DNA from: an uncultured Planctomycetales bacterium
GTDB lineage: Bacteria; Omnitrophota; Gorgyraeia; Gygaellales; Profunditerraquicolaceae
Direction of reading: 5' to 3'
Length of the DNA: 64,000 bases
Assembly: GCA_964399915.1 (NCBI GenBank)
Contig: CAYNRN010000003.1
Coordinates: 2,064 to 66,063, forward strand
Of this stretch, positions 3,583 to 60,867 are shown piece by piece. A program made the position numbers and the translations under genes. How positions within the stretch are numbered: position 1 is the first letter of the stretch; the number at the start of each line of letters is the position of its first letter. The notes beneath the pieces were generated by a model that saw nothing but the letters and a program-made list of their open reading frames with translations, was not told the DNA's origin and did not search any database.

Positions 3583-3595
3583 TCAACAAACAAAT

Positions 3596-27813: not shown

Positions 27814-28421
27814 TTAGCGGTTTTTATTTTATTACCGATGCGGTTTTAAGCAGAGCGGGTAACTACAACGATGTCAGAAGCGCTTTACAGGCAGGGGTAA
27901 GAGTTATTCAGTACCGCAATAAAAGCGCCAATACCAGAGAGATGTTTGAAGAGGCGCTGCGCCTGAAAAAAATCTGCGCTAAGGCGGTCTTCCTGGTCAA
28001 TGACCGTATTGATATCGCAATGGCAGTAGGCGCTGACGGCGTCCATATTGGTGAAGACGATATTCCTTATCCCGCCGCCAGAAAATTATTGGGGAGGAAG
28101 AAGATAATCGGAGTTACGGTGCACTCGCTGGAAGCTGCCAGGAAGGCGCAGGCAGCGGGAGCGGATTATCTGGGGGCATCTCCGATATTCGCCACAAAAA
28201 CTAAAAAAAACGCCGGCAGGCCGGTAGGCACTGTTCTGATTAAAAAGTTAAAAGAAGAACTTAATCTGCCGGTTGTCGCAATCGGAGGAATAAATTTAAA
28301 GAATGCGCCTGAGGTTATCCGCGCCGGAACTGATGGTTTATGCGCGATATCTGCGGTTGTGACTAAGCCAGATGTAGAAAGAGAAATAAAGAAATTCCAG
28401 GAGCTTTTTAATGGCTGTTGA
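27810..28421 (+). CDS. thiE: Thiamine-phosphate synthase
   Basis: TMP-TENI fold motifs GADGVHIGEDD and VVAIGGIN. 203 aa. Confidence 0.8.
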   Translation: MISGFYFITDAVLSRAGNYNDVRSALQAGVRVIQYRNKSANTREMFEEALRLKKICAKAVFLVNDRIDIAMAVGADGVHIGEDDIPYPAARKLLGRKKIIGVTVHSLEAARKAQAAGADYLGASPIFATKTKKNAGRPVGTVLIKKLKEELNLPVVAIGGINLKNAPEVIRAGTDGLCAISAVVTKPDVEREIKKFQELFNGC

Positions 28422-29529
28422 TCCGGTCTGCGGGATGCAGGTTGATGAAAAAACAGGGATCAGGGTTAGCAAGGGCGGAAAAGACTTATTTTTCTGCAGC
28501 TCAAATTGCAGGGATAGATTCACAGGAAAGCCTTTCTATAAAAATAAACTTTTTTTGCTATCCGGCATCTGCCTGCTGCTTCTGGGTTTTTCGTTTGTCT
28601 TCGCTATCCTGGAGCCTTTCAGGGAATCTTTCCTGAGCTATCTGAGATCTATCTGGTGGGCGGTGCTTTTAGGGCTGCTACTGGGAGGCGTCATCGATCA
28701 TTTTGTCCCCAGTGAGTATGTATCTAAGATCTTAGCCCGCAAGGGCGCGCGGACAATCTTTAATTCCGTATTTTTGGGGTTTTTAATGAGCGCCTGCAGC
28801 CACGGGATACTGGCGCTTTCCATACAGCTGCATAAGAAGGGTGCGTCGAACCCGGCAGTGGTAAGCTTCCTCCTGGCAAGCCCCTGGGCTAATTTTGCGG
28901 TTACAATGATGATTTTAAGCTTATTCGGCATCAAGGGGTTATTCATCATTATCGCCGCTTTGGTTATCGCGCTTAATACCGGATTTATCTTTATTCTGCT
29001 TGAAAAGAATAACCTTATAGAGAAAAATAAGAATATTACCGAAGTGCCTGAGAATTTTTCGATTATCAGAGATTTCAGGAGGCGCAGCGGGGATTATAAG
29101 TTTAACCTGTATACGCTGATCAACGATATTAAGGGGATCAGGGCAGGCGCGGTATCTCTGGCAGATATGGTTTTATGGTGGATTATCCTGGGAATGTTGC
29201 TGGCAAGTTTAGCCGGGGCATATATCCCGGTGCACTTTTTCCATAAGTTTATGGGGCCGACAATGCTCGGATTACTGGTGACGCTGGGTATCGCTACGGT
29301 TATAGAGGTTTGCTCCGAGGGGTCATCGCCTTTAGCTTTTGAGATCTACCGCCAGAGCGGAGCGTTGGGAAACAGTTTTACATTTCTTATGGCAGGAGTA
29401 GTAACGGATTATACCGAAATCGGGCTTCTCTGGACGAATGTCGGTAAAAAAACCGCGCTTTGGATGCCGGTAGTGGCTGTGCCGCAGGTGATTATCCTGG
29501 GATACCTGGCTAATCTATTCCTTAAATAA
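28411..29529 (+). CDS. YHS (TRASH-like metal-binding) domain fused to a DUF318/ArsP-type permease
   Basis: N-terminus DPVCGMQVDEKTGIRVSKGGKDLFFCSSNC is a YHS domain. The membrane body has two repeated halves with an MSACSHG motif resembling the ArsP TMCSCG region. Confidence 0.55.
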   Translation: MAVDPVCGMQVDEKTGIRVSKGGKDLFFCSSNCRDRFTGKPFYKNKLFLLSGICLLLLGFSFVFAILEPFRESFLSYLRSIWWAVLLGLLLGGVIDHFVPSEYVSKILARKGARTIFNSVFLGFLMSACSHGILALSIQLHKKGASNPAVVSFLLASPWANFAVTMMILSLFGIKGLFIIIAALVIALNTGFIFILLEKNNLIEKNKNITEVPENFSIIRDFRRRSGDYKFNLYTLINDIKGIRAGAVSLADMVLWWIILGMLLASLAGAYIPVHFFHKFMGPTMLGLLVTLGIATVIEVCSEGSSPLAFEIYRQSGALGNSFTFLMAGVVTDYTEIGLLWTNVGKKTALWMPVVAVPQVIILGYLANLFLK

Positions 29530-29546: not shown

Positions 29547-30620
29547 GTGCCTAAAATTAAAAAAGTTCTTACAGTTTTTATCGCCGTATTTGCGTTGTTT
29601 TTTATTGCTTCGGCAGTATCGGTTGCCATGTTCGGCAAGAAGTTCGCCGAGGAACAGCTTGCAAAAAACCTAAAAGAAGAAGTCAGCTTAGGCGGCATCG
29701 GCCTGAGCCTGCCCTTTAATATCCGCATTGCAGATTTAAAAATCGGGGATTTATTCAGCGCAGAAAGGGTCTCTTTTATCCCTAACCTTGCGGGGTTATT
29801 TTCAGGCAGGATAGTTTTAAGCGGGGTCTCCCTGATAAATCCCGTAGTTAATTTTGTGCAGAACTCAGACGGGAGCAATAATTTACCCGCCCTAGATAAA
29901 GGGGGGAAACAACAGCAGATAATCCTCACCGGCCTTTCCGTAAAAAACGGAAAGTTCATTTATAATGATAAGAAGATCGCGCCGCAGGGTTTTGTAACCG
30001 AGGTCGACCAGATAAACATAGAGCTTTCCAGGGCAATGCTTCCCCTTGCCGGGCTGAAGGCCAGTTTTAAGATGAGCGCGCTGGTTTTGCAGCCCGACGG
30101 GGAAGTGCTGGGAGCGCTTAAGTTTAATGGGTGGGCTGATTTTATTTCTAAAAATATGGATGCAGCTCTCACAGCCACCGACCTTAACGTCGGTTATTTT
30201 GCTCCGTATTACGGAAACTTTATCTCCGAAAAAAAGCTCGTTTCGGCTAAGCTGAACTTAGAATCAAAACTTAAGTCAAAAGACAACGCCCTTGATATCA
30301 ATTCGAACCTGGTGCTTTCAGACCTGGTTTATGCCCGGCAGGAGGCTGCCGAGCCTCAGCAGGTCGACCTTAAGGAATTATTCAGCAATACCCTTGATTT
30401 ATTTGCCGATGAACGAGGCAATATCAAGCTGAATTTTGTGATCAAGACAGATTTCGATAATCCCCGCATAACAATAGCCGCATTAAAGAAAGCAGCGTTT
30501 GAGGCAGCAGCAAAGAACCTTATCTCTCAAAGGCCGAGCCTCCTTCAGGAAAAAGTCAACACCCTAATCGGTCAATTTAAATCCCTGCGAAAAGGCGCAG
30601 AAGCGGAACAGGCGCAATAA
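29547..30620 (+). CDS. AsmA-like/DUF748-like envelope protein, N-terminally anchored (tentative)
   Basis: N-terminal TM anchor followed by a beta-rich periplasmic region (VSLGGIGLSLPFNIRIADLKIGDLFSAERVSFIPNLAGLFSGRIVLSGVSL). Confidence 0.3.
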   Translation: MPKIKKVLTVFIAVFALFFIASAVSVAMFGKKFAEEQLAKNLKEEVSLGGIGLSLPFNIRIADLKIGDLFSAERVSFIPNLAGLFSGRIVLSGVSLINPVVNFVQNSDGSNNLPALDKGGKQQQIILTGLSVKNGKFIYNDKKIAPQGFVTEVDQINIELSRAMLPLAGLKASFKMSALVLQPDGEVLGALKFNGWADFISKNMDAALTATDLNVGYFAPYYGNFISEKKLVSAKLNLESKLKSKDNALDINSNLVLSDLVYARQEAAEPQQVDLKELFSNTLDLFADERGNIKLNFVIKTDFDNPRITIAALKKAAFEAAAKNLISQRPSLLQEKVNTLIGQFKSLRKGAEAEQAQ

Positions 30621-30645
30621 AACATTCTAAAAAATAAAAAAACTC

Positions 30646-30675
30646 TTGACAAATGATACTATTATGGTATCATTT
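30646..30675 (+). promoter_or_regulatory. Promoter (TTGACA-16-TATCAT/TATTAT) with a 9-bp-arm palindrome AAATGATAC-N7-GTATCATTT bracketing the -10; candidate Rrf2 operator
   Basis: Palindrome at 30651-30675 encloses the TATTAT at 30660-30665. It lies upstream of an Rrf2-family regulator gene. Confidence 0.55.
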
Positions 30676-30704
30676 ATGTAATCGAAAAGAAAGGAGAAGA
30701 AAAG

Positions 30705-30788
30705 ATGGATATTACCGTCAGATACATGCTTAGGCCGGTAGCCCACTGTAAAGAAGGCTGCCAGTTTTTGCCCCGGGCAAGGCGTTAA
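30705..30788 (+). CDS. Possible 27-aa leader/small ORF (MDITVRYMLRPVAHCKEGCQFLPRARR) upstream of the Rrf2 gene; speculative
   Basis: AAGGAG RBS 8 nt upstream of the ATG. Two Cys. A GC-rich hairpin TTGCCCCGGGCAA lies within its 3' end. Confidence 0.2.
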   Translation: MDITVRYMLRPVAHCKEGCQFLPRARR

Positions 30789-30821
30789 ACTGCCCATTTG
30801 TTTTTATTTTAAGGAGTATTT

Positions 30822-31226
30822 ATGAAACTGATTACCAGGGATACTGATTATGCGTTGAGGGCGGTTTGTTTTATCGCCGGTCAAAAGGAGAGGGTTGTTG
30901 CAGCCTCCGAATTAGCCGAGGCACTGAAAGTCCCGCGCCCTTTCTTGAGAAAACTGCTTCAGGTTTTGAACAGGAAGAATGTGCTTATATCTTTGCGCGG
31001 CATAGGCGGAGGATTCTTATTAGCCAGGACGGCAGATAAGATTTATCTAACTGAATTGATAAAGATATTCCAGGGGCCGTTTTCCCTGAACGAATGTTCC
31101 TTAAAGAAAAAGCCCTGCCCCGAAAGAAAAATCTGCCCTTTGAGAAAGAAAATATGCAGGATAGAACGCTATCTATTAAGGGAATTAAGCGCCGTCAGCG
31201 TAGGTTCTTTATTAAAGAGAAAGTAA
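30822..31226 (+). CDS. Rrf2 family transcriptional regulator (IscR/NsrR-like; three clustered Cys, likely Fe-S sensing)
   Basis: Rrf2 wHTH N-terminus (MKLITRDTDYALRAVCFIA...SELAEALKVPRPFLRKLLQVL). C-terminal CSLKKKPCPERKICP. Confidence 0.8.
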   Translation: MKLITRDTDYALRAVCFIAGQKERVVAASELAEALKVPRPFLRKLLQVLNRKNVLISLRGIGGGFLLARTADKIYLTELIKIFQGPFSLNECSLKKKPCPERKICPLRKKICRIERYLLRELSAVSVGSLLKRK

Positions 31227-31230
31227 TTCA

Positions 31231-32064
31231 ATGAACAAGAGGAAGATTATAAAAATAAACGAAGAAAAATGCAACGGCTGCGGCCTTTGCATCCCAAATT
31301 GCCCGGAAGGGGCATTACAGATTATTGACGGCAAAGCCCGGTTAATCAGCGACCTTTTCTGTGACGGCTTAGGGGCCTGTATCGGGCATTGCCCAGAGGG
31401 CGCCATTACTATAGTGGAGCGGGAGGCCGGAGAATACGAAGAGAAAAAGGTAATGGCCAATATCGTAAAGCAGGGTAAAAACGTGATCAAAGCCCATCTT
31501 AAGCACCTTAATGATCATAACGAAACCCGATATTTAAATCAGGCGCTTGCCTATTTGAAGGAAGAGGGCATTGAAAATCCTCTTGCTGATGAATCTAAGG
31601 GGAAGCCTGTTTTGCCTTGCGGTTGCCCCGGGACTAAAGTGGTTGACTTCAGGAAAGAAGGCGCCGCTAAAAAGCCAGAATCATCCCCGCGGCAGGAATC
31701 CGAATTAAGGCAGTGGCCGGTGCAGACCATGCTTGTGCCGGCGCACGCTCCTTATCTGGACGGCGCGGATTTACTGATTGCCGCAGACTGCGTGCCTTTT
31801 GCTTATGCCGGCTTCCATAATCAGCTGCTAAAGGATAAGATCCTGCTTGTGGGCTGCCCGAAGCTTGATGATATCGGCATATATGCGCAGAAGCTGAGAG
31901 AGATATTTAAGGGGCGCGATATCAAATCAGTAACCTACGCCCATATGGAAGTGCCTTGTTGTTTCGGCTTGGTAGAGACGATTAAATCGGCGATTTCCGA
32001 CTCCGGAAAAGCAATACCTTTCAAAGAAGCGATTATCAGCATAAAAGGAGAGAGGATTAAGTGA
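31231..32064 (+). CDS. 4Fe-4S dicluster ferredoxin-domain protein with a Cys-containing C-terminal domain of unknown function
   Basis: CNGCGLCIPNCP and CDGLGACIGHCP motifs. The C-terminal 180 aa (LVGCPKLDD...EVPCCFG) is unassigned. Confidence 0.6.
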   Translation: MNKRKIIKINEEKCNGCGLCIPNCPEGALQIIDGKARLISDLFCDGLGACIGHCPEGAITIVEREAGEYEEKKVMANIVKQGKNVIKAHLKHLNDHNETRYLNQALAYLKEEGIENPLADESKGKPVLPCGCPGTKVVDFRKEGAAKKPESSPRQESELRQWPVQTMLVPAHAPYLDGADLLIAADCVPFAYAGFHNQLLKDKILLVGCPKLDDIGIYAQKLREIFKGRDIKSVTYAHMEVPCCFGLVETIKSAISDSGKAIPFKEAIISIKGERIK

Positions 32065-32312
32065 TATTCAAGTGCCCGGGGCAGGACAGCAGGAATATAA
32101 AGGGAGAGGCAATAAAATGCCCCAAGTGCGGATATAGGGCAGAGATTTTCTCTGACGAGATAAAGGTCAGGTGCCCGGAGTGCAAGATTTTAATCTCCAG
32201 GCAGAGGCTGCCCTCATGCATTGACTGGTGTAAATCCGCCCGGGCGTGCCTTGGGCAAGAGAGGTGGAACAGGTTAAGCAAAGGTGGTATAATTGAAAAC
32301 AAGGGAGGATAA
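32061..32312 (+). CDS. Small Cys-rich zinc-ribbon protein
   Basis: CPGQ...CPKCG...CPECK...C..C..C pattern. 83 aa. Confidence 0.4.
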
Positions 32313-32317
32313 TTCAG

Positions 32318-32476
32318 ATGGAAAAATATAAGTGTACCGTCTGCAGTTATATCTATGACCCGGCAAAGGGCGATGATACTCAAGGGATTAAACCCGGAAC
32401 ACCATTCGCGGACTTACCGGATAGCTGGGTGTGCCCTGATTGCGGCGTGGGCAAGGACTTATTCGAAAAGCTATAA
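32318..32476 (+). CDS. rub: Rubredoxin (52 aa; not in the ORF track because it is <60 aa)
   Basis: [52 protein letters not shown], with canonical CxxC...CPxCG rubredoxin knuckles. RBS GGGAGG 8 nt upstream. Confidence 0.9.
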
Positions 32477-32485
32477 GAGTTCAAG

Positions 32486-33193
32486 ATGATAAAAGAATTA
32501 GAGGCCAGGATAAAAGAGATAATCCCGCGTACTTATAATGTGATAAGTTTCCGTGCAGAGGCTTCAGCCGGAGCCGATTTTAAAGCCGGACAGTTCATGG
32601 AGGTTTCCCTGAAAACAAAGCCGGTTTTAAAGAGATATCTGTCGATATCCAGTTCTCCTACCGAAAAGGGGTATCTTGAATTCACCAAAAAGATTACTCA
32701 GAGCGATTTTTGTAAGGCCCTGCAGAATTTAAAACCTGGAGATTTTCTGAATTTAAGATATCCGCTGGGTAAGTTTACCTTATCGGGAGGCGAGAAAAAG
32801 ATCGCTTTTTTATCGGGCGGCATAGGAATTACGCCGATCAGAAGCATAGTAAAATTTATTGTGGATACGAAATTAGGGCTTGATATGGTGCTGTTTTACG
32901 CCAACCGTTCAGCAAAAGATATCGCTTTCTGGGAAGATTTTGAGGATATGCAGCGTAGCTACGCCAAACTTAAAGTTATACATGTCATCAGCGAATTTTC
33001 CCAGGGCTTGACTGGCTGTAAATCCGGGATGATTAACGCAGAAATGATCAGAGAGTGCCTGTCGGATTACGCAGAGCGTAAATTCTATCTCTGCGGGCCT
33101 CCGGTAATGGTAAGCGCGATGCAGGCAATACTCTCCAAAGAGCTAAGCCTGCCCTACAGCCAAGTTATTACAGAGAATTTTCAAGGTTATTAA
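32486..33193 (+). CDS. FNR-like FAD/NAD(P)H oxidoreductase (candidate NAD(P)H:rubredoxin oxidoreductase)
   Basis: FAD-binding RYLSISS and NAD-binding AFLSGGIGITPIRS motifs. C-terminal YLCGPPVMV. Confidence 0.65.
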   Translation: MIKELEARIKEIIPRTYNVISFRAEASAGADFKAGQFMEVSLKTKPVLKRYLSISSSPTEKGYLEFTKKITQSDFCKALQNLKPGDFLNLRYPLGKFTLSGGEKKIAFLSGGIGITPIRSIVKFIVDTKLGLDMVLFYANRSAKDIAFWEDFEDMQRSYAKLKVIHVISEFSQGLTGCKSGMINAEMIRECLSDYAERKFYLCGPPVMVSAMQAILSKELSLPYSQVITENFQGY

Positions 33194-33203
33194 GGAGGTA
33201 AAT

Positions 33204-34397
33204 ATGCCGGTGCTTAAAATACTCCCCAATATTTATTCTGTGGGCGCAATAGACTGGGATGTGCGTAATTTTCACGGCCATACTTATACTACAAAAAGAG
33301 GCACTACCTATAATTCTTATCTTATAGTAGATGAGAAGATCGCCTTGGTAGATACGGTTTACGGGCCTTTCGCCGATGAACTGATTGAGAATATAAAGAG
33401 TATCGTCCTCCCGGAAAAAATAGATTTTGTGATTGCTAATCATGTGGAGACGGATCATTCAGGGGCGCTGCCTGCGATTATGAAGCTTTGCCCCAAAGCT
33501 AAAGTAATCGGGACTCAGAAATGCAAGGAAGGTTTATATAAGCATTATTACGGCAATTGGGATTTTCAGGTGGTAAAGACAGGCGATAAGATTAAACTCG
33601 GCTCGCGCAGCCTTACCTTTATGGAGGCGCCGATGATCCACTGGCCGGACAGTATGTTTACCTATTGTCCCGAAGAACAGCTGCTGCTTCCCAATGATGC
33701 TTTCGGGCAGCATTATGCCACAAGCGGGCGGTTTGACGACGAGGTAGACCAATGCGCGCTTATGGATGAGGCAAAAAAATATTACGCCAATATACTCTGG
33801 CCGTTAAGTTCCCTGATCCAGAGGAAGATTGAGGAAGTGCAGAAGTTAAATCTAGCGATCAAAATTATTGCCCCGAGCCACGGGGTGATCTGGCGCAAGG
33901 ACCCGATGAAGATTGTCAAGGCGTATCTGGCATGGGCTAAAAACGAAACTGTCCCTAAGGCGGTGATTGTTTATGAGACGATGTGGGGGGCAACCGAAAA
34001 GATGGCCCGCAGGATCACTGACGGCATAGTTGATTCCGGTGCCGAGGCTAAGGTTTATAATATCGCAACAAGCGACAGGACAGAAGTATTAAATGATATG
34101 CTTGACGCAAAAGGATTTTTGTTCGGCTCTTCTACTCACGATAATGATATGCTGCCTTCGATAGCAGCGTTTATGGAGCTTTTTAAAGGGTTAAAGCCGA
34201 AAAACCGCATTGCCGCTGTTTTCGGCTCGCATGGCTGGGCCGGCGGGGCAGTGAAAGAAATAGAGGCGGTAGCCAGGGAAGCGGGAGCCGAGGTTATCCA
34301 GCCCGGGCTTGCGCTGCAATACGTTCCGGATGCCCGGGAACTGGAAAACTGTTATGAATTCGGGAAGAGTTTTGCGCAAAGAATAAAAGGAGGATAA
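33204..34397 (+). CDS. Flavodiiron protein (rubredoxin:oxygen/NO oxidoreductase, FprA/ROO family)
   Basis: Metallo-beta-lactamase-like diiron domain (HVETDHSGALP) fused to a flavodoxin domain (AVIVYETMWGATEKMA). 397 aa. Confidence 0.8.
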   Translation: MPVLKILPNIYSVGAIDWDVRNFHGHTYTTKRGTTYNSYLIVDEKIALVDTVYGPFADELIENIKSIVLPEKIDFVIANHVETDHSGALPAIMKLCPKAKVIGTQKCKEGLYKHYYGNWDFQVVKTGDKIKLGSRSLTFMEAPMIHWPDSMFTYCPEEQLLLPNDAFGQHYATSGRFDDEVDQCALMDEAKKYYANILWPLSSLIQRKIEEVQKLNLAIKIIAPSHGVIWRKDPMKIVKAYLAWAKNETVPKAVIVYETMWGATEKMARRITDGIVDSGAEAKVYNIATSDRTEVLNDMLDAKGFLFGSSTHDNDMLPSIAAFMELFKGLKPKNRIAAVFGSHGWAGGAVKEIEAVAREAGAEVIQPGLALQYVPDARELENCYEFGKSFAQRIKGG

Positions 34398-34398
34398 G

Positions 34399-34839
34399 AT
34401 GAATACTTTTATCTGCGGTAAATGCGGGTACTTGGCTTTTGATCAGGCGCCGGATATCTGTCCGGTTTGCGGCGCTAAGAAAGAGGCCTTTGAAGCCGAT
34501 CCCTCTGCGATTAAAAAACCGGCCGATCCTAAAAGCCTTAATGATCTGGAGAAAAAGCATATCCCGGCTATAACGTTAGTCAGGAAATGCGGGCTGGTAC
34601 CTCAAGGCTGTATAGACGTACATATTAAGGTAGGGGAAATCCTGCACGTAATGGAAGCCAAACACTTTATTATGTACATAGATGTCTATCTGGATAAAAA
34701 TTTTATTGCCCGCTACCATATGACACCCGATAAATTAAACCCGGTTTTAAGCCTGCATCTTAAGGCCGACAAGGGAGAGTTGCTGGCGCTGGAAAATTGT
34801 AACCTCCACGGCAGGTGGGTTGCCGGGGCAACAATCTGA
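34399..34839 (+). CDS. Superoxide reductase (desulfoferrodoxin/neelaredoxin family) with N-terminal rubredoxin-like zinc ribbon
   Basis: N-terminal CGKCG...CPVCG. SOR-domain ligand pattern EKKHIPAI...H....H...C..H (CNLHGRW). Confidence 0.7.
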   Translation: MNTFICGKCGYLAFDQAPDICPVCGAKKEAFEADPSAIKKPADPKSLNDLEKKHIPAITLVRKCGLVPQGCIDVHIKVGEILHVMEAKHFIMYIDVYLDKNFIARYHMTPDKLNPVLSLHLKADKGELLALENCNLHGRWVAGATI

Positions 34840-35309
34840 TGGTTGCTTTAAGTGGCAGTATAATTAATTTTTTTCAGGATCAGGGGTGCGTTCTGGTCAA
34901 TAGTATCGATGAAAACGGCACGCCGCACAGCGCCTGTAAGGGGATAGTCGAGATAACGAAAAACGGGCGCGTTTTTCTATTCGACCTTTACCGGCAAAAG
35001 ACCCATAATAACCTACTGCTCAATCCTAAAATAAGTATCACCGCTTTCAACGAGCATAAGTTTATCGGTTATTGCCTTAAAGGCAGGGCCTCTGCTGTTA
35101 CCGCCGGAGAGATTAACGCCGACCTGATCAAGGCTTGGGAGGAACGGATTACCAGCAGGCTTACGCAGAGGTTATTAAAGAATATTCACGAAGAAAAGGG
35201 CCATCCGTATCATCCGGAAGCGCTCTTGCCTAAGCCGCAATATCTTATTGCAATGGATGTCGAAGAGATAGTGGATTTGACGCCGCAGCATATTAAAGAC
35301 AGGGGGTAG
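34839..35309 (+). CDS. Pyridoxamine 5'-phosphate oxidase-like FMN-binding split-barrel protein (tentative)
   Basis: Start chosen at ATG 34839 (overlapping the SOR stop as TGATG) instead of 34815. About 156 aa with an FMN-binding split-barrel-like pattern. Confidence 0.35.
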   Translation: MVALSGSIINFFQDQGCVLVNSIDENGTPHSACKGIVEITKNGRVFLFDLYRQKTHNNLLLNPKISITAFNEHKFIGYCLKGRASAVTAGEINADLIKAWEERITSRLTQRLLKNIHEEKGHPYHPEALLPKPQYLIAMDVEEIVDLTPQHIKDRG

Positions 35310-35312
35310 AAG

Positions 35313-35789
35313 ATGGGGAATATCTTTGCAGCCAGCGAGATCGTAGAGATAGGGATTCAGATCGAAAGAAACGGCAAAGATTTTTACGAAACTCTCAGCC
35401 GTAATAGCAAGGATCTCAAAGTGCAGGATACCTTCAATTTCCTTTCCGGCGAAGAAGCGAAACATATCGCTGCTTTCCAGAAGATACTCGGTTCGATAGG
35501 AAAATATGAGCCGCAGGGGCTGGATTCGGATGATTACTACGCCTATATGAATGCCTTATCTGCTGACAGCGTGTTTACCCAGAAAGATAAGGGAAGAGAA
35601 CTGGCAGCTAAGGTTAAAAACAATACCCAGGCGATTGATATGGGTATTCAGGCGGAGAAGGATTCAATTGTCTTTTATGAAGGGATAAAAAAGGCAGTAC
35701 CGGATTATGACCACAAGGCTGTAGATGAGATAATCCGTCAGGAGCAGGAACATTTAGGCATGTTATTGGGTTTAAAGAGAAAAATCTAA
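35313..35789 (+). CDS. Rubrerythrin-family ferritin-like diiron protein (no rubredoxin domain)
   Basis: Paired ExxH motifs (EEAKH; EQEH) plus E residues (IQIERNG, QAEKDS) of a four-helix-bundle diiron site. Confidence 0.6.
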   Translation: MGNIFAASEIVEIGIQIERNGKDFYETLSRNSKDLKVQDTFNFLSGEEAKHIAAFQKILGSIGKYEPQGLDSDDYYAYMNALSADSVFTQKDKGRELAAKVKNNTQAIDMGIQAEKDSIVFYEGIKKAVPDYDHKAVDEIIRQEQEHLGMLLGLKRKI

Positions 35790-35802
35790 GAGGAGGCTCT
35801 TA

Positions 35803-36039
35803 ATGGCTAAGTCGGTAAAAGTATACTCTACGCCAACTTGCCCCTGGTGCATTAAAGTTAAGCAGTTCCTTTCCGAAAATAATATCGCTTTTGAGAACTT
35901 TGATGTATCAAGCGATCAGGATAAAGCCCAGGAGATGATTAATAAAACCGGGCAGATGGGCGTGCCGGTTATCGACGTTGAAGGCGAGATCATCGTCGGG
36001 TTTGATAAAGATAAGATAAAACGAACCTTAGGAATATGA
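35803..36039 (+). CDS. Glutaredoxin-like protein (NrdH/YruB family)
   Basis: CPWC active site (VYSTPTCPWCIKVKQFL). GVPVI cis-Pro motif. 78 aa. Confidence 0.8.
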   Translation: MAKSVKVYSTPTCPWCIKVKQFLSENNIAFENFDVSSDQDKAQEMINKTGQMGVPVIDVEGEIIVGFDKDKIKRTLGI

Positions 36040-36953
36040 CCTACGATTTAGTCGTCATCGGCGCCGGGCCCGCTGGTATTACCGCAGCGATTTATGCAGC
36101 CAGAAAACGTTTAAATACCCTGGTGATTACCAAGGATATCGGGGGACAGGCGGCGTGGAGCGGGGATATCGAGAATTACATCGGATACCAATTTATCACT
36201 GGTCCTGACCTGGTAGAAAAGTTTGAAGAGCACCTGCGTAAATATGATATCGTTTTAAAAGAAAACGAAGCTGTTCAGACAGTAGAGAAACAAGGGAATA
36301 AAATTAAAGTCAAGACAGACAAGGCTGAATATGATTCCCGTACCGTGATTATTGCCTGCGGAAAGCGCTCTCGCGAATTGAATGTCCCGGGAGAAAAAGA
36401 ATTTAAGAATAAAGGCCTTACTTACTGCGCCACCTGTGACGGCCCGTTATTCAGCGGCAAAGATGTAGCGGTTATCGGAGGAGGTAATTCCGCCCTGGAT
36501 GCGGCACTGCAGTTAGCCAATATCGCTAGAAAAGTATATATTATCAATAATACCGTGCAGTTGGTAGGCGATGAAATAATGCTTGAGAAATTAACCGGTA
36601 ATACCAAAGTCGCGGTATTTAATGATGCCCGGGTTTTGGAGGTCTTTGGGGATAAATTTGTTAGCGGCCTGAAGATAAAACAGCAGGGTAGGGAGCAGGA
36701 ATTAACTGTTCAGGGCGTCTTTGTTGAAATCGGGCTCCTGCCTAACTCAAGGATCGTTCCGCAGGCGGCTAAGAACGTTTCTGCGGAAATTAAGGTTAAC
36801 TTTGCCAACGAAACCAGTATCCCGGCAGTATTCGCCGCCGGAGACGTAACCGATGTGCCGGAGAAACAAATCATTATTGCCGCCGGAGAAGGTGCTAAGG
36901 CCGCATTAAGCGCGTTCCGATATCTTGCCAGAAACAGGTTCAACCAGGAGTAA
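36036..36953 (+). CDS. trxB: Thioredoxin-disulfide reductase
   Basis: FAD motif VVIGAGPAG, redox-active CATCDG, NADPH motif GGGNSA. 305 aa. Confidence 0.8.
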   Translation: MTYDLVVIGAGPAGITAAIYAARKRLNTLVITKDIGGQAAWSGDIENYIGYQFITGPDLVEKFEEHLRKYDIVLKENEAVQTVEKQGNKIKVKTDKAEYDSRTVIIACGKRSRELNVPGEKEFKNKGLTYCATCDGPLFSGKDVAVIGGGNSALDAALQLANIARKVYIINNTVQLVGDEIMLEKLTGNTKVAVFNDARVLEVFGDKFVSGLKIKQQGREQELTVQGVFVEIGLLPNSRIVPQAAKNVSAEIKVNFANETSIPAVFAAGDVTDVPEKQIIIAAGEGAKAALSAFRYLARNRFNQE

Positions 36954-36966
36954 TTTTCAAAACCTC

Positions 36967-36995
36967 TTGCTAATTCTTTAAAGCGGTAATATAAT
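36967..36995 (+). promoter_or_regulatory. Sigma70-like promoter TTGCTA-17-TATAAT upstream of yggT
   Basis: Hexamers at 36967-36972 and 36990-36995. Confidence 0.5.
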
Positions 36996-37049
36996 AAAAA
37001 TGGGTCAGGTTTTTCCCCGGAGGGATTCGTCTAAGAGCCAATTAGCCGC

Positions 37050-37355
37050 ATGTCTATCTTCTCTAATCTAGTCTTTGCGCTGGCGCAGATAGTCAATATA
37101 CTCCTAACCGTGCTTTACTGGCTGATTTTGATCCGCGCTTTAATCAGCTGGGTAAACCCGGATCCCTATAACCCAATAGTCCAGTTTCTTTACAAGAGCA
37201 CCGAACCGATACTTTCTCCCATCCGCAGGCTGCTGCCTGTATCTTTGAAGTTCGGCATAGATATTTCTCCAATCATCGCGTTTTTCGTAATATTATTTTT
37301 TAAATCGTTTATAGTAAATAGCTTATTTGACCTTGCGTTACGGCTGAAATCATAA
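37050..37355 (+). CDS. yggT: YggT family membrane protein
   Basis: 101 aa. LIRALISWVNPDPYNPIVQFLYKSTEPILSPIRRLLP is the YggT signature. Confidence 0.75.
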   Translation: MSIFSNLVFALAQIVNILLTVLYWLILIRALISWVNPDPYNPIVQFLYKSTEPILSPIRRLLPVSLKFGIDISPIIAFFVILFFKSFIVNSLFDLALRLKS

Positions 37356-37443
37356 AAAAGGAGATAATGATTCTTGGATATAGCCATCGAAGAAGCGATG
37401 AGAATGATGGTTTCCGTCGGGTTGCTTAATCCGGGGAGGTAAG

Positions 37444-38889
37444 ATGCTGCAATATTTTATGGGGATGTTCAGGAGTATCCGGGTCATCGATTTTATTGAT
37501 ATTGCGATTATCGCGATTATGATTTATTTAGTGTTATTGTGGTTGAAAAAGGCCCGGGCGCGTTTTATCCTCATCGGCATGATCATTATCGGGCTGATCT
37601 ATGTTCTAGCAAAGATTTTCAGTCTTTATATGACAACCATGTTTTTCCAGGGGTTCTTCGCGATCCTGTTAATTATGGTGGTAATAATCTTCCAGGATGA
37701 ATTCCGCCACTTCTTTGAGAGAGTAGCGGTATTGGGGACGCAGAGAAGGCGCCGGGGCGTATCCTACGGGCAGGATATTGAAATTTTAAGCAGCGCTATA
37801 GCAAATCTGTCACGTAAACAAATCGGCGCACTGGTGGCTATCCGGGGCCGGGATCCGCTAGACCGCCACCTGGAAGCCGGTATCCGCGTTGACGGGCTTC
37901 TCAGCCAGGTATTGCTTGAAAGCCTGTTTGACCCGCATGCCCCGAGCCATGACGGGGCAGTGATTTTAGACGGCGGCAGGGTAGGGCGCTTTAGCGCTTA
38001 TCTCCCTCTTTCTACCAACGTCAATGAAATCGGCAGGTCCGGGACACGTCATGCCGCGGCCTTAGGCTTAACCGAGCGCTCGGATGCGCTTTGTATAGTA
38101 GTTTCCGAAGAGCGCGGCACAATTTCCGTTGCCGAAGCCGGACGTATCCGGGAATTATCCGATCCGGCCCAGCTTAATAGTATCTTGGCAGATTTTTACC
38201 GCAGCCGCTATCCGGAGAAAAAGGGGTCTACCCTTACGGATTTATTGGCCGGCCATCTTTCTGAGAAGATACTGGCAATTATATTGGCAGCGGCAATCTG
38301 GGCGATCTTCGGATATCAGAAAGACATCATCCGCCGCGATTTTGTGATTCCGGTAGAATACCGGAATCTTTCGCAGGATAGAATAATTGGCGAACCTAAA
38401 CCCAAAGAAGTAACTATTACTCTCAACGGCGCAGAGCGGGCCTTTAATATGGTCGACCCTAAAGAGCTTAAGCTTTCCCTGGATATGTCCAAGGTCCAAG
38501 ACGGAGAGAATAATATTATATTGAATGAGGAAATGGCACGTTACCCTGCCGGCTTCTCGGTATTAAACATTGAACCCGAACGAATCAAACTTAAGATTGA
38601 AAGGATGGTTACATTTACCGTTCCCGTAGAAGTAAAGACGCAAGGGACGCTTCCCGCGGGGTTGTCTTTAGTCCAGATAAAGGTTGAGCCTAAAGAGATA
38701 CAGGTAGTAGCCCCCAGCACGCTTCCTACGGGAAAAATCAATATCACTACCGACGTTATCGACTTAAAAACCATAACAGCAACCACAACGTTTACTCCTA
38801 AACTGATAGTCCCGCCGCAGGTGACTTTAACCGCGAATAAATATCTGGATATCAAAGTCACTGTCGAAGTGGAAACCAAGGAAAAATAG
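37444..38889 (+). CDS. cdaA: Diadenylate cyclase CdaA fused to a YbbR-like (CdaR regulator-type) C-terminal domain
   Basis: Three N-terminal TM helices. DAC domain (HDGAVILDGGRVGRFSAYLPLS...GTRHAAALGLTERSDALCIVVSEERGTISVA). Then a fourth TM and about 200 aa of beta-rich YbbR-like repeats. Confidence 0.7.
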   Translation: MLQYFMGMFRSIRVIDFIDIAIIAIMIYLVLLWLKKARARFILIGMIIIGLIYVLAKIFSLYMTTMFFQGFFAILLIMVVIIFQDEFRHFFERVAVLGTQRRRRGVSYGQDIEILSSAIANLSRKQIGALVAIRGRDPLDRHLEAGIRVDGLLSQVLLESLFDPHAPSHDGAVILDGGRVGRFSAYLPLSTNVNEIGRSGTRHAAALGLTERSDALCIVVSEERGTISVAEAGRIRELSDPAQLNSILADFYRSRYPEKKGSTLTDLLAGHLSEKILAIILAAAIWAIFGYQKDIIRRDFVIPVEYRNLSQDRIIGEPKPKEVTITLNGAERAFNMVDPKELKLSLDMSKVQDGENNIILNEEMARYPAGFSVLNIEPERIKLKIERMVTFTVPVEVKTQGTLPAGLSLVQIKVEPKEIQVVAPSTLPTGKINITTDVIDLKTITATTTFTPKLIVPPQVTLTANKYLDIKVTVEVETKEK

Positions 38890-38907
38890 CACGAGCAGGG
38901 AAGAATT

Positions 38908-40386
38908 ATGTGGACAAAAGAAAGCCTGCAGGCATTGATTAAAGAGAAGCTGGAAGATTACCTCTTTGTGGTTGTTTCTAACCGGCAGCCTTATGTGCAT
39001 ACTTTTAAAAGAGGCAGGGTTGAATACCGGAGAGGCGCCGGCGGAGTAGTTACTGCCCTTGACCCGGTAATGCAGGCCTGCCACGGGCTTTGGGTAGCGT
39101 TCGGCAGCGGAGACGCTGACAGGAAGGTAAGCGACGCGCAGGGTAAGTTAGGAGTTCCCCCTGAAAGCCCCAACTATACCCTCAGGAGAGTATGGCTTAC
39201 TAAGGAGGAAGAAAACGGTTATTATTTCGGGTATTCCAACGAGGCACTCTGGCCGCTTTGCCATATGGCATTTCAGCGCCCGGTGTTCCGCAAAGAAGAC
39301 TGGGAATATTATGTCAAGGTAAATAAAAAATTCGCCCAGGCAGTAGCCGAAGAGGTAAATCATAAGAAGGCATTTATCTGGATACAGGATTACCATCTTT
39401 GCCTACTGGGAAAATTTTTAAAAGAGCTCCTGCCGGGCAAGATCATTGTTTCGCACTTCTGGCATATTCCCTGGCCGAATTATGAAACTTTCCGCATCTG
39501 TCCGCAAAAGAAAGAGATACTCGAGGGGCTCCTGGCGAATGATTTGATGGGTTTTCATATCCGCAACCACTGCGCTAATTTTATCGAGGCAATAGACAGA
39601 GAGATAGAAAGCAAGATAGACCGCGAACGTTTTTCCGTTATCCGCGGCGGGCACGAAACCATTGTCCGGCCGTATCCGATCAGCGTAGATTTTGAAGGGA
39701 TCAGCAGTTTTTCTGCTGCCGGAGAAGCGGATAAAATAGGGCAGGCGCTGATTGAAGAATTCAGCCTCAGCGGTCTAAAAGTTATGCTGGGCTTAGACCG
39801 CATAGATTATACAAAAGGTATTCCGGAGAGGTTACTGGCGATAGACGCGCTTTTTGAGGCGCACCCGGAGTTGAAAGAAAAGATTGTTTTTCTGCAGATG
39901 GGGGAGATCAGCCGTATCCATATACCTAAATATAAGGAATTGAACGATGAAATTAACGCTCTGGTCGAACAGATAAACTGGAAACACTCTACCGGTGAGT
40001 GGAGGCCGGTAATTTTAGTAAGGAGGCACCTTTCATTCAAGGAACTGGCGGGTTTCTACCGGATGGGGGAGGTATGTATTGTCAGCTCTTTACATGACGG
40101 CATGAACTTGGTAGCTAAAGAGTTTATTTCCTCGCGTTCGGATGAGAATGGCATGCTGGTCTTAAGTCAATTTACCGGCGCTGCGCGCGAATTGACCGAC
40201 GCGATACTGGTTAATCCCTTTGACCGCCATCAGTTCAGTGAAGGCATCTACCAGGCATTGAATCTGCCTTCGGAAGAAAAGCAGAAGAGGATGAATAAGA
40301 TGCGCGCCATAATCCAGCAGAATAATATCTTCCGTTGGGCAGGCAAGGTGCTTTCAGAACTTTTAAAGTTTGAGTTTAAGGAATGA
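38908..40386 (+). CDS. otsA: Alpha,alpha-trehalose-phosphate synthase (GT20)
   Basis: GT20 family motifs (LWVAFGSGD, IWIQDYHL, HFWHIPWP, SLHDGMNLVAKEF). 492 aa. Confidence 0.85.
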   Translation: MWTKESLQALIKEKLEDYLFVVVSNRQPYVHTFKRGRVEYRRGAGGVVTALDPVMQACHGLWVAFGSGDADRKVSDAQGKLGVPPESPNYTLRRVWLTKEEENGYYFGYSNEALWPLCHMAFQRPVFRKEDWEYYVKVNKKFAQAVAEEVNHKKAFIWIQDYHLCLLGKFLKELLPGKIIVSHFWHIPWPNYETFRICPQKKEILEGLLANDLMGFHIRNHCANFIEAIDREIESKIDRERFSVIRGGHETIVRPYPISVDFEGISSFSAAGEADKIGQALIEEFSLSGLKVMLGLDRIDYTKGIPERLLAIDALFEAHPELKEKIVFLQMGEISRIHIPKYKELNDEINALVEQINWKHSTGEWRPVILVRRHLSFKELAGFYRMGEVCIVSSLHDGMNLVAKEFISSRSDENGMLVLSQFTGAARELTDAILVNPFDRHQFSEGIYQALNLPSEEKQKRMNKMRAIIQQNNIFRWAGKVLSELLKFEFKE

Positions 40387-41186
40387 AGTATCTCTTACGC
40401 TATTGGCGCGTTTTGCCCGGGAAGGCCCGCGCTAAATATAAAGTTTTATTTTTAGATTTTGACGGTACTCTGGCGAAGATTGTAAAAAGCCCCCGTAAGG
40501 CCAGGATTGAGCCGTCAATTAAACTTTTATTGCTCCGAATAACGCAGGATAAGGCATACAGGGTTGCAGTTATCAGCGGTAGGGCGCTTGGCGACATCAA
40601 GAAGAGGGTCGGGATTAAAGGCATTGTTTATATCGGGAATCACGGTTTGGAAATTGACGGCTCCAAGATCAGGTTCTCTGGCTTTCAAATTGATAAATTC
40701 AGGTTAACGCTCAAACGGCTGAAGGCAAAACTGAAACAGAGGTTAGATCCGATAAAAGGGATTTTTATAGAAGATAAAGGATTAAGCTTGAGTGTACATT
40801 ACCGCTTGGTTAAAAAAAAGGACTTGGCCTTTTTTAAAGCCGCTTTTGCACAGATAACTGCTGAATATGCCTCCGGCAATAAAATAAAAATCCATCCGGG
40901 GAAGAAAGTTTTTGAGATCCGCCCTCCTCTGCAATGGGATAAAGGCAAAGTTGCGCTCTGGCTTTTAGCCAGATGGAAGTCCGCTTTTGCGGATAAGGAG
41001 GTATTGACGGTTTACATCGGAGATGATCTCACCGATGAAGATGCTTTCCGGGCTCTCGCGGGTAAGGCTATAACGGCGGTAGTGGGTAAAAGGAAAGATT
41101 CGGCAGCCGCTTACTATTTAAATAACGTAGGGGAAGTAGCAAGATTCTTAAACGTTCTGGGGCCGGCAAAATGCCTAAAATTATAA
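40383..41186 (+). CDS. otsB: Trehalose-6-phosphate phosphatase (HAD-IIB)
   Basis: HAD motif I FLDFDGTLA, motif IV GDDLTDEDAF. Start overlaps the otsA stop (ATGA). Confidence 0.8.
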   Translation: MKYLLRYWRVLPGKARAKYKVLFLDFDGTLAKIVKSPRKARIEPSIKLLLLRITQDKAYRVAVISGRALGDIKKRVGIKGIVYIGNHGLEIDGSKIRFSGFQIDKFRLTLKRLKAKLKQRLDPIKGIFIEDKGLSLSVHYRLVKKKDLAFFKAAFAQITAEYASGNKIKIHPGKKVFEIRPPLQWDKGKVALWLLARWKSAFADKEVLTVYIGDDLTDEDAFRALAGKAITAVVGKRKDSAAAYYLNNVGEVARFLNVLGPAKCLKL

Positions 41187-41842
41187 AAGCTAAAGAGCCG
41201 TTTAGGTTTTACACGCGTTTGCATTTATCAGAACTGACCGGATTAAAGGCGGTTAATCTCTCTCAACTTCTGGGAATCTTAAAAGAAGTTCCCGGTTCAA
41301 GCATATACCATCATACGCACAGGTTCCTACAGCAGCACCAATATCTTTCTCCCGAGCCTCCGAATGATTTTGCCTACTGGGTTTCCAGCGTCCTTGCCGA
41401 AGATGCCCTTGCCGAAGAACTGGCCAGTATCGATACCATCCAGTATTCTAATATCCGCAGCCTCAGGGAGAAGATAATCCAGACTATAGAAGATTACCTT
41501 AAAGAACACCCTATGGCAAAGTTGAAATTCGCCAACGAAGAGGAAGCTTTTTATTTTATCAAATCAATCAGTTTCGTTGTGCCGACAAAATACGTGGCGC
41601 ATGATTTAAAAGAGTTCATCAGCATCCTGGAAAGAGTGACCGTAGATTCGATATATTTCCATATCTTTGAGGCCCGCCTGAGGCTTGAGAAGCAGACTAA
41701 TGACTTCTCTTTATGGATCGAGACCTCTTTAGGCGATAAGCCGCTGGCGGATAGAATCGCCAATATTGACCCATATACGCGCACGCTTGAAGACTTACGC
41801 AGAACCTTAATCCGCATAATCGAAAGGAAGGTTTCATCATAA
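41171..41842 (+). CDS. Hypothetical protein conserved in the trehalose locus (223 aa, soluble)
   Basis: No recognisable catalytic motif. Overlaps both the otsB end and the treT start, implying co-translation with them. Confidence 0.4.
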   Translation: MPKIIKAKEPFRFYTRLHLSELTGLKAVNLSQLLGILKEVPGSSIYHHTHRFLQQHQYLSPEPPNDFAYWVSSVLAEDALAEELASIDTIQYSNIRSLREKIIQTIEDYLKEHPMAKLKFANEEEAFYFIKSISFVVPTKYVAHDLKEFISILERVTVDSIYFHIFEARLRLEKQTNDFSLWIETSLGDKPLADRIANIDPYTRTLEDLRRTLIRIIERKVSS

Positions 41843-41845
41843 AGC

Positions 41846-60435: not shown

Positions 60436-60867
60436 ATGCAGGAAACAGTAGCGAAATTCCGGGAAAAATTCAGCAATCAGGTTATAAAGTCGCAAGAGAA
60501 ATCAACCCGCAGGCAGTATATAGAATTTTTACCACCGGATATTCCGGAGGCAGCGCGTTTTTTGTTCAAAGACCTCAATTGCCGTTTTGCCACTGCCAGC
60601 GGCATCGATACCCCCGAAGGAATAGAAATATTGTATCATTTCTCCGATGACCATACCGGAGAGGTGATCAGTCTGCGCACTATACTTACCGATAAAAAGG
60701 ACCCTCAGATACATTCCATCGCGACAATATTTCCGGCAGCGGAATGGATAGAGAGGGAAATCTGGGAATTGTTGGGAGTAAAATTTATCGGCCATCCCAA
60801 TTTGAAGCACCTGCTTTTAATTGACGATTGGCCGGAAGGAAAACACCCTTTGAGGAAGAAAGAATGA
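60436..60867 (+). CDS. NuoC/EchD-like hydrogenase subunit
   Basis: 143-aa NuoC-fold protein (IEILYHFSDDH...EREIWELLGVKFIGHPNL). Confidence 0.65.
   Translation: MQETVAKFREKFSNQVIKSQEKSTRRQYIEFLPPDIPEAARFLFKDLNCRFATASGIDTPEGIEILYHFSDDHTGEVISLRTILTDKKDPQIHSIATIFPAAEWIEREIWELLGVKFIGHPNLKHLLLIDDWPEGKHPLRKKE

Follow-up and report, generated by a model that had tools for sequence, protein, structure and literature searches.

A predicted Rrf2-controlled operon for defence against oxygen and reactive oxygen species in an uncultured Omnitrophota bacterium

Omnitrophota are uncultured and widespread bacteria, many of them ultra-small and found in anoxic waters and sediments, and the locus described here raises the question of how a member of this phylum may control its defence against oxygen. 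The locus lies in a contig stretch of 64,000 nucleotides from an uncultured Omnitrophota bacterium (hereafter the window; coordinates count from its start), in which eleven consecutive open reading frames (ORFs) on the + strand, from 30822 to 36953, encode an Rrf2-family transcription factor followed by redox enzymes and carrier proteins. A preliminary description, made from the DNA letters, had read these genes as one stress operon under the upstream Rrf2 protein, acting at a palindrome at 30651–30675. Rrf2-led synteny in 80 genomes and the presence of the palindrome at 79 of the 80 loci strongly support that reading, and we put at about 75% the probability that the cluster is a single operon for defence against oxygen, reactive oxygen species (ROS) and probably nitric oxide (NO), with its own predicted repressor as the first long gene. 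The enzymology is that of textbook anaerobe oxygen defence and its parts are ordinary; the pairing of Rrf2 with its operator is new, two of the enzyme architectures are uncharacterised and a leader module ahead of Rrf2 is unexplained.

All eleven ORFs are present at the positions first assigned to them. The preliminary description had proposed annotation of each ORF with hidden Markov models as a check, and these profile searches upheld every family call, with the flavodiiron protein (FDP), superoxide reductase (SOR) and rubredoxin (Rd) assignments all retained. The genes are separated by gaps of −4 to +13 nt, some ORFs overlapping, and the promoter-like and terminator-like sites inside the cluster do not exceed the numbers found after shuffling. 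Two amendments to the original gene list are needed. For the PNPOx-like protein (156 aa, as on an identical JGI contig), the most probable start is ATG 34839 rather than GTG 34815, the ATG sharing one base with the SOR stop codon, and a short ORF (sORF) of 27 codons at 30705–30788 had been left out. The identical FDP is encoded on contigs of at least five metagenomes.

The Rrf2 regulator and its operator

The best sigma-70-like promoter within 30000–37600 lies ahead of the Rrf2 gene (30646–30673, + strand). It consists of a −35 hexamer TTGACA at 30646–30651, a 16-nt spacer and an extended −10 element, TGgTATCAT, ending at 30673, such that TTGACA-16-TATCAT matches the consensus at 11 of 12 positions in addition to the TG. 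Overlapping this promoter, the palindrome at 30651–30675 proved to be a perfect 9-7-9 inverted repeat, AAATGATAC-TATTATG-GTATCATTT, which fills the promoter spacer and covers the −10 element. It is the sole copy in the window, where no second operator was found with up to three mismatches allowed.

To place this arrangement among relatives, one genome per species was scanned, yielding 80 Rrf2 loci (numbered with the prefix L below) whose labels are nearly all those of Omnitrophota metagenome-assembled or single-cell genomes, with a few given as Planctomycetes or "bacterium". The comparison comprised 10 kb on either side of each Rrf2 gene, with the window proteins searched against the 80 loci by tblastn. 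Rrf2 homologues at 55–65% identity number in the hundreds, and every named one is labelled Candidatus Omnitrophota or Omnitrophica. In the 80 genomes the Rrf2 orthologue heads same-strand variants of the same gene set. Scanning the 80 loci (1.18 Mb) for ATGATAC-N7-GTATCAT with two mismatches allowed gave 82 sites, two of them weak extras: one copy in 77 of the 80 loci, two in each of L056 and L067 and none in L013. The sites lie 27–715 nt upstream of Rrf2, the one exception being a weak extra site in L067. At loci where site and gene lie far apart, further small genes (the sORF, YHS-domain proteins or a peroxiredoxin) occupy the space, with no second promoter-like gap. The operator accompanies the Rrf2 gene in 79 of the 80 loci, inserted genes notwithstanding.

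This constancy contrasts with the Rrf2 proteins themselves, which are only ~60% identical, and with the flanking DNA, which is unalignable. Among 81 sequences (the 80 orthologous loci and the window), cTTGAC and the −10 element are kept in ~70; within 320 nt of Rrf2, the composite cTTGAC-AAATGATAC-N7-GTATCATT(A/T) is identical at 16 or more of its 18 specified positions in 70. Promoter spacers are normally free to vary. Because the left half-site, which lies in the spacer, is as invariant as the right one, the palindrome is, in our reading, an operator at which a repressor would occlude the promoter; its strict co-occurrence with Rrf2 together with the dyad geometry suggests that the adjacent regulator binds there. 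Thus, Rrf2 probably controls the operon via a near-invariant, phylum-wide operator, and the sharpness of this site would make the regulon readable directly from genomes.

The gene order downstream of Rrf2 was assessed in the 43 loci that hold at least 8 kb on that side, counting genes on the same strand. The Zn-ribbon protein was found in 34 of these, FDP in 30, rubredoxin in 29, the Fer4/AF_0155 protein in 28 and the FNR-like flavoenzyme in 27, followed by the PNPOx-like protein (22), the glutaredoxin-like (Grx-like) protein (21), the thioredoxin reductase-like (TrxR-like) protein (20), the rubrerythrin-domain protein (18) and the SOR with a rubredoxin domain (9). The steadiest part of the cluster is its head, with Rrf2 followed by Fer4/AF_0155 and then the Zn-ribbon gene. 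Genes inserted into the operons of relatives, identified by Pfam, are almost all redox-stress or iron genes. These comprise the hybrid-cluster protein (Hcp, Prismane family) at 30 loci (for example L042 11988–13283), a 1Fe-SOR at 23, a Redoxin/AhpC-TSA thiol peroxidase fused to a pterin-4a-carbinolamine dehydratase domain at 16, ferritin and classical rubrerythrin at seven each, flavin reductase and DJ-1/PfpI at six each and a VIT1-rubrerythrin fusion at four; in L057 a peroxiredoxin is the first gene behind the operator. Hcp, 1Fe-SOR, Tpx, AhpC, ferritin and classical rubrerythrin were sought in the window, and none was found. Such variable cargo behind a constant head looks like a stress regulon.

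The Rrf2 protein itself (134 aa; 30822–31226, + strand) matches PF02082 with 97.4 bits (cut-off 30) and TIGR00738 with 94.6 bits (cut-off 73.3), and the family's winged helix-turn-helix domain spans its full length. The three-cysteine cluster ascribed to it in the preliminary description is genuine, as C92-x6-C99-x5-C105 is invariant among 26 Rrf2 orthologues, as is D9, while the fourth cysteine of the window protein is not conserved in this set. In a profile alignment to NsrR of Streptomyces coelicolor (5n07), D9, C92, C99 and C105 fall on D8, C93, C99 and C105, which are the four [4Fe-4S] ligands of that protein. By equivalog models, the protein scores 52 bits against NsrR (NF008240, cut-off 182), 47.5 bits against IscR (TIGR02010, cut-off 207.6) and 81.5 bits against the SUF-system regulator (TIGR02944, its second-best NCBIfam match, cut-off 110.65), and it also stays under the RirA and CymR cut-offs. 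On sequence grounds, it forms a subfamily of its own with a predicted NsrR-like ligand set of three cysteines and an aspartate. A role in Fe-S assembly of the IscR/SufR kind was considered and rejected on these scores and on context: no isc or suf genes stand beside Rrf2 in the 80 loci.

In the mechanism that we infer for DNA binding, cofactor, inducing signal, electron transfer at every step and leader function, a reduced holo-Rrf2 dimer would sit on the operator in anoxic, unstressed cells and block RNA polymerase, its NsrR-like [4Fe-4S] cluster being held by C92, C99 and C105 of one subunit and D9 of the partner. Once O2, ROS or NO had damaged the cluster, Rrf2 would leave the operator and the whole unit, Rrf2 included (autoregulation), would be derepressed as one transcript running from ~30681 through 36953. 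The mainly O2/ROS-specific cargo argues for O2 and ROS as the signal. As the ligand set is that of NsrR and Hcp occurs in related operons, the signal may be NO besides O2 and ROS; that NO may be sensed too would also fit the likeness of the FDP to NO-reducing flavorubredoxins.

The comparison with known Rrf2 systems bears on this proposal. With S. coelicolor NsrR the Omnitrophota protein shares the winged-helix Rrf2 fold, the three cysteines and N-terminal aspartate (aligned by residue identity) and a palindromic operator overlapping the promoter of detoxification genes. Unlike in the NsrR system, the cargo here consists mainly of O2/ROS enzymes rather than flavohaemoglobin, the score lies far under the equivalog cut-off, and the operator, ATGATAC-N7-GTATCAT, differs from NsrR sites. 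A published parallel, drawn as a hypothesis, is the uncharacterised Rrf2 protein C0FN14 of Lachnospiraceae, which has three cysteines and Asp8, adjoins the BOOR system (BCR and FDP), rubrerythrin and RNR, and is proposed in the portions of a 2026 bioRxiv preprint that concern it to leave DNA once ROS or reactive nitrogen species damage its cluster (PMC13404960). In both cases a predicted three-Cys-plus-Asp Rrf2 is encoded beside FDP and anaerobic oxidative-stress genes. The two differ in phylum and in cargo, which is butyryl-CoA-driven there and would be NAD(P)H/rubredoxin-driven here; the passages of the preprint that describe C0FN14 report no operator (PMC13404960). This preprint of July 2026 is the only similar proposal for an FDP-linked Rrf2 that we found (PMC13404960).

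Electron carriers, oxygen- and ROS-reducing enzymes

Rubredoxin-centred oxygen defence is regulated by PerR in clostridia and Desulfovibrio, and the Omnitrophota operon offers a candidate O2/NO-sensing Rrf2 in place of that control. A close comparison is with Clostridium acetobutylicum, in which an O2-responsive nror-fprA2-dsr operon, with rubredoxin and rubperoxin, is reportedly repressed by PerR (Kawasaki et al. 2009, cited in PMC3116461). The two systems share a predicted NAD(P)H-driven, rubredoxin-centred reduction of O2, superoxide and H2O2 by FDP, SOR and a rubrerythrin-type protein, encoded by clustered genes that are derepressed as a unit in an anaerobe, which for Omnitrophota is a prediction from the genes. 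They differ in the regulator (an Fe-S Rrf2 here, the Fur-family PerR there), in the reductase (FNR-fold here, the Pyr_redox_2 protein NROR there) and in the SOR, which here carries a rubrerythrin-type rubredoxin domain instead of desulforedoxin. The Omnitrophota operon further adds the Fer4/AF_0155, Zn-ribbon, PNPOx-like and TrxR/Grx genes and the leader sORF.

The hub of the proposed pathway is rubredoxin (52 aa; 32318–32476, + strand). The preliminary description had recovered this gene although the ORF track missed it, and rightly so: the protein is ~50 aa long with two CxxCG knuckles, matches PF00301 with 87 bits and passes the equivalog model NF045768 (92.9 bits, cut-off 90). Electrons would reach it from NAD(P)H through the FNR-superfamily flavoenzyme encoded next (235 aa; 32486–33193, + strand), which combines FAD_binding_6 with NAD_binding_1, has no Fe-S domain and finds its closest PDB relative in NADH-cytochrome b5 reductase (2eix). 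The known NAD(P)H:rubredoxin oxidoreductases (clostridial and Pyrococcus NROR, Pseudomonas RubB and Escherichia coli NorW) are Pyr_redox_2 flavoproteins, and tested against that type the window protein was found to have a different domain composition. The preliminary description had placed a canonical rubredoxin reductase in the chain; the candidate instead has the FNR/cytochrome-b5-reductase fold and not that of NROR, which leaves the NAD(P)H-to-rubredoxin step conjectural. Gene order supports, without proving, a possible function as rubredoxin reductase: wherever orthologues sharing 50% identity or more are encoded, the rubredoxin gene almost always precedes them and the FDP gene usually follows immediately.

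From rubredoxin, electrons would pass to the FDP (397 aa; 33204–34397, + strand), which would reduce O2 to H2O or NO to N2O. The protein is of class A, as it comprises an ODP/Lactamase_B domain (residues 36–227) and Flavodoxin_1 (255–387) with no extra domains, and its HxExDH motif (HVETDH) and further ligand motifs are readable in the translation. Its best NCBIfam model is that of the anaerobic NO reductase flavorubredoxin (NF008887; 499 bits, below the cut-off of 635), and we predict an O2 and/or NO reductase.

A second outlet would be the SOR (146 aa; 34399–34839, + strand), reduced by rubredoxin via its own rubredoxin-like domain and converting superoxide to H2O2. The catalytic part of the SOR call stands, with a Desulfoferrodox domain (PF01880, 66.8 bits) and intact centre II ligands (H54, H83-x5-H89 and C134-x2-H137), all invariant among 34 homologues, but the N-terminal domain is not that of a desulforedoxin. 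It is a rubrerythrin-type rubredoxin-like domain (RUBY_RBDX, 39 bits) with C6, C9, C21 and C24 invariant in the same 34 homologues, and the PDB structure that it matches best is the rubrerythrin C-terminal domain (3mps). Consistent with this, the protein scores only 38 bits against the desulforedoxin-containing 2Fe-SOR model dfx_rbo (TIGR00320, cut-off 146.9). Desulfoferrodoxin (2Fe-SOR, the Dx-SOR of SORGOdb) has the same plan of two domains, with a Cys4 metal site in the N-terminal one and the Fe(His)4Cys centre II in the C-terminal one. Its N-terminus, however, is desulforedoxin, CxxC-x15-CC, where the Omnitrophota protein has PF21349, CxxC-x11-CxxC. This architecture is absent among the named SORGOdb classes, and the homologues are annotated in the sources simply as SOR or desulfoferrodoxin. 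All of the 120 homologues listed, of 285, share RUBY_RBDX plus Desulfoferrodox, and nearly every named one is from Omnitrophota. The AlphaFold model has a predicted local distance difference test score of 50–60 in the catalytic domain and was therefore not used for fold searching. The operon thus puts two enzyme variants on offer, an inferred rubredoxin reductase of the FNR fold and a rubredoxin-domain SOR.

Hydrogen peroxide would be reduced to H2O by the rubrerythrin-domain protein (158 aa; 35313–35789, + strand), likewise fed by rubredoxin. It is a ferritin-like di-iron protein (PF02915, 42 bits) with two ExxH motifs readable in the translation, and when tested as a classical rubrerythrin it showed no RUBY_RBDX domain and no match to NF045767. 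The last two genes, adjacent and with overlapping stop and start codons, would constitute a second, thiol-based branch serving thiol targets. The first encodes a YruB-family glutaredoxin-like protein with a CPWC motif (78 aa; 35803–36039, + strand; TIGR02196, 99.7 bits, cut-off 88.6) and the second a Pyr_redox_2 flavoprotein disulfide reductase with a CATC motif (305 aa; 36036–36953, + strand). The latter had been called a thioredoxin reductase on its CATCDG motif; the disulfide reductase part of that call holds, but the protein matches AhpF positions 212–514 (327 bits) and TRX_reduct (298 bits) below both cut-offs, and is better described as TrxR/AhpF-C-terminal-like. The TrxR-like gene directly follows the Grx-like gene in 15 loci. 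The YruB family (TIGR02196) is presumably tied to the Cp34/Cp9/Cp20 system at the rubredoxin locus of Clostridium pasteurianum, and as with Cp34/Cp9, a TrxR-like flavoprotein and a small glutaredoxin-like CxxC protein stand side by side near rubredoxin. Unlike in C. pasteurianum, neither the operon nor the window holds a peroxiredoxin equivalent to Cp20, although some related loci carry Tpx/Prx.

Three further proteins may be electron input or carrier modules. The gene behind Rrf2 encodes a ferredoxin-domain protein with two 4Fe-4S motifs (277 aa; 31231–32064, + strand) whose Cys-rich C-terminal 120 residues form the recently defined AF_0155 domain (PF27217 is recorded for the identical protein). 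It is followed by a Cys-rich zinc-ribbon protein (83 aa; 32061–32312, + strand) with weak Zn_ribbon matches only, which is fused to a longer C-terminal extension in three loci. The third is the PNPOx-like FMN-binding protein (156 aa; 34839–35309, + strand; PNPOx_N, 41 bits).

The leader module and competing explanations

Between the promoter and Rrf2 lies a conserved twelfth gene, the sORF MDITVRYMLRPVAHCKEGC... (30705–30788, + strand), of 27 codons (MDITVRYMLRPVAHCKEGCQFLPRARR) and preceded by a strong Shine-Dalgarno (SD) sequence, AAAGGAG, at 30691–30697. It was not on the preliminary gene list, and the gene calls of the identical JGI contig lack it as well. In the 81 sequences, an sORF with a strong SD sequence behind the operator occurs in 50 instances; its consensus start is MDITV[RK]YMLRPVAHCKEGC... 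(for example L011 4648–4741 and L080 ~13030–13130, among instances seen across L006–L085). Entropy over codons 1–19, computed from 24 aligned leaders, is 0.30, 0.12 and 1.17 bits at the three codon positions, and Arg10 and Leu9 switch between codon families. Variation thus falls on the third position while the protein is preserved, indicating selection on a coding sORF, in which R10, H14, C15, E17, G18 and C19 are invariant. Three sORF variants had no match in Pfam or NCBIfam even at E=10 and E=1. An antisense ORF at 30627–30797 was dismissed as spurious, as the codon-family switches fit the + strand frame alone.

From codon 22 onward, conservation takes a different form. A 27-nt RNA element at 30768–30795 (+ strand; TTGCCCCGGGCAAGGCGTTAAACTGCCC), with the consensus uuGUCC-yGGGyA-nGAC-nn-UAAACUGCC, overlaps the final sORF codons and stop and is conserved without three-base periodicity. 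It is kept wherever the stop falls, whether right after Cys19, as the UGA in GCAUGAC or as the UAA in GUUAAAC, and it ends exactly 34 nt past the Cys19 codon in most loci. In 2.35 Mb the element occurs 45 times, each time behind the sORF. Its GGGCA has two possible pairing partners, UGUCC ahead of it and UGCCC behind it, giving two mutually exclusive hairpins in which 86% and 98% of cells are paired; neither hairpin showed covariation beyond that of shuffles, the element being nearly invariant. Some variants carry hairpin insertions between GUCC and GGGCA, or between GAC and UAAACUGCC. A search of Rfam 15 at E ≤10 gave nothing relevant, with rli33 (16.3 bits, gathering threshold 46) and NsiR4 (10.5 bits, gathering threshold 40) as the best matches. 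A terminator behind the element, with a stem from (A)WGACG to a downstream complement, was tried and rejected, as the stem averaged 2.82 contiguous pairs and shuffled tails 2.67 ± 0.18.

The module usually precedes Rrf2 but is not bound to it. In L080 the rubredoxin gene follows it at a distance of 71 nt, and it stands 0.5–0.6 kb upstream of the next recognised gene in L078 (rubredoxin) and L045 (an ArsP/YHS permease); in L058, L074 and L083 it is within the operon, kilobases from the next recognised island gene. The sORF and RNA element, judged by their conservation, form a real module. It would be a microprotein gene to which an RNA signal is attached, or else a portable leader with a regulatory role at the 5′ end. 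In the mechanism proposed above, this 5′ part of the transcript would serve as a second, post-initiation control device or encode a co-functioning microprotein. Speculatively, and at odds that we would call poor, the module would be an undescribed cis-regulatory leader in which a 19-residue nascent peptide (RPxxHCKEGC) and a two-hairpin RNA switch tune the oxidative-stress genes, perhaps by sensing a redox-active ligand or metal inside the ribosome, layered on the Rrf2 repressor. Either way, an unannotated microprotein and RNA leader of this kind escape automated pipelines.

The reading of the cluster as one Rrf2-repressed operon has points that weigh against it. Part of the palindrome conservation could be promoter conservation, as its right half-site falls on the −10 hexamer. 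As Rrf2 falls below every named Rrf2 equivalog cut-off, its signal is not transferable by homology, and the comparison covers the regulon only within 10 kb of each Rrf2 gene. On the side of the enzymes, no rubredoxin reductase known to us is of the same family as the FNR-like protein, and the TrxR/Grx pair has no peroxiredoxin partner in the window. If the palindrome were bound by another regulator, or were merely an unusually conserved promoter, Rrf2 could regulate other targets such as Fe-S assembly in the manner of IscR/SufR. The overlap of the right half-site with the −10 element, the SUF-system regulator as second-best match and a cysteine desulfurase-like gene at 47270–48436 would fit that idea, yet the SUF match stays under its cut-off, the window holds no operator elsewhere, isc and suf genes are missing beside Rrf2 throughout the 80 loci, and the operator stays with Rrf2 in all but one of them even across inserted genes. 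The dyad symmetry and 25-bp length also fit a winged helix-turn-helix dimer, and we regard this alternative as very improbable. A more serious contender takes Rrf2 to be a functional NsrR, with the operon answering primarily to NO, the FDP acting as an NO reductase and the ROS genes as passengers. The alignment of D9, C92, C99 and C105 with S. coelicolor NsrR, the flavorubredoxin model as the best (if sub-threshold) FDP match and Hcp in the orthologous operon at 30 loci all lend it weight. Against this, the NsrR equivalog score is 52 bits where 182 would be required, no Hcp is encoded in the window, and the cargo is mostly O2/ROS-specific, with two kinds of SOR, rubrerythrins, peroxiredoxins/Tpx, ferritin and DJ-1. 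We consider it unlikely that NO is the primary signal; since [4Fe-4S] Rrf2 sensors react with both O2 and NO, the NO and O2/ROS readings are compatible.

Control might also reside chiefly in the leader, where translation of the sORF, perhaps with ribosome arrest on RPVAHCKEGC, would remodel the RNA element between its two hairpins and so set downstream expression. This would explain why 19 codons under coding selection give way abruptly to nucleotide-level conservation irrespective of the stop position, why the element is never found without the sORF and why the module also stands ahead of rubredoxin (L080, L078) or the ArsP/YHS permease (L045), like a portable 5′ leader. The two mutually exclusive hairpins fit almost all sequences, and naturally occurring insertions are located in one hairpin's apical loop or at the junctions of conserved blocks. 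However, significant covariation is lacking, the terminator stem behind the element is no better than shuffled, Rrf2 has an SD sequence of its own, and the peptide could be a plain functional microprotein. Moreover, 31 of the 81 sequences have no module upstream of Rrf2 and yet keep the operator. We therefore think it improbable, though worth weighing, that the leader is the main control, and favour the Rrf2 repressor acting at its operator in that role.

Variants of the cluster and genomic surroundings

Several observations on the related loci stand beside the main gene set. In L075 (14410–15261), the Redoxin/Pterin_4a fusion gene lies between the rubredoxin and FNR-like genes; we know of no earlier description of this fusion architecture. 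The Zn-ribbon extension in L024 (11233–11949) and two more loci is ~150 aa long and by eye resembles an HD-type phosphohydrolase. Proteins that by eye are 2-oxoacid:ferredoxin oxidoreductase alpha/beta-like are encoded within the operon in eight loci (for example L062 5277–6953 and L079 15615–16469), which suggests reduced ferredoxin as an alternative electron source, perhaps via the Fer4/AF_0155 protein. A second, distant Rrf2 paralogue (~30% identity) closes the island on its downstream side in seven loci (L014 15268, L021 15590, L022 19808, L039 15411, L046 7063, L075 20073 and L081 17184), and none was found in the window.

An ArsP-type permease with an N-terminal YHS domain (window 28411–29529) immediately precedes the operon in ~19 loci, and in three it is encoded within or behind the operon. 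At three loci, the operator is followed first by a gene for a small secreted YHS-domain protein. The positions recorded for these YHS/ArsP genes are L061 1895–2221, L064 9438–9821, L070 1648–1941 and L045 ~3100–3700. Their placement near the operon, the operator and the sORF module hints at a tie between metal transport and the regulon.

Our literature search found no paper tying Omnitrophota to superoxide reductase and one in which Omnitrophota, oxidative stress and rubrerythrin occur together (PMC10742547), and the main genomics paper on the phylum makes no mention of oxidative stress, rubredoxin, rubrerythrin, superoxide or Rrf2 (PMC10066038). That paper predicts some classes of Omnitrophota to be obligate anaerobes and others to be aerobes (PMC10066038). 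The window also encodes an HcyBio-family homocysteine-synthesis enzyme (44799–46001) and a Complex-I 49 kDa/NiFe-hydrogenase large-subunit-like protein (60828–62069), both consistent with anaerobic life. With SOR, FDP and rubredoxin, these genes and the predicted obligate-anaerobe classes make it plausible that the host is an oxygen-sensitive anaerobe, as the preliminary description had concluded, though 64 kb of DNA cannot establish this lifestyle and other Omnitrophota are predicted aerobes.

Directly downstream of the operon, the region 37444–43057 encodes a CdaA-type diadenylate cyclase fused to YbbR domains, followed by a trehalose cluster that, by the gene calls of an identical public contig, comprises OtsA, a trehalose phosphatase, DUF5752 and a TreT-like glycosyltransferase. 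Osmotic and c-di-AMP stress genes hence adjoin the redox-stress operon.

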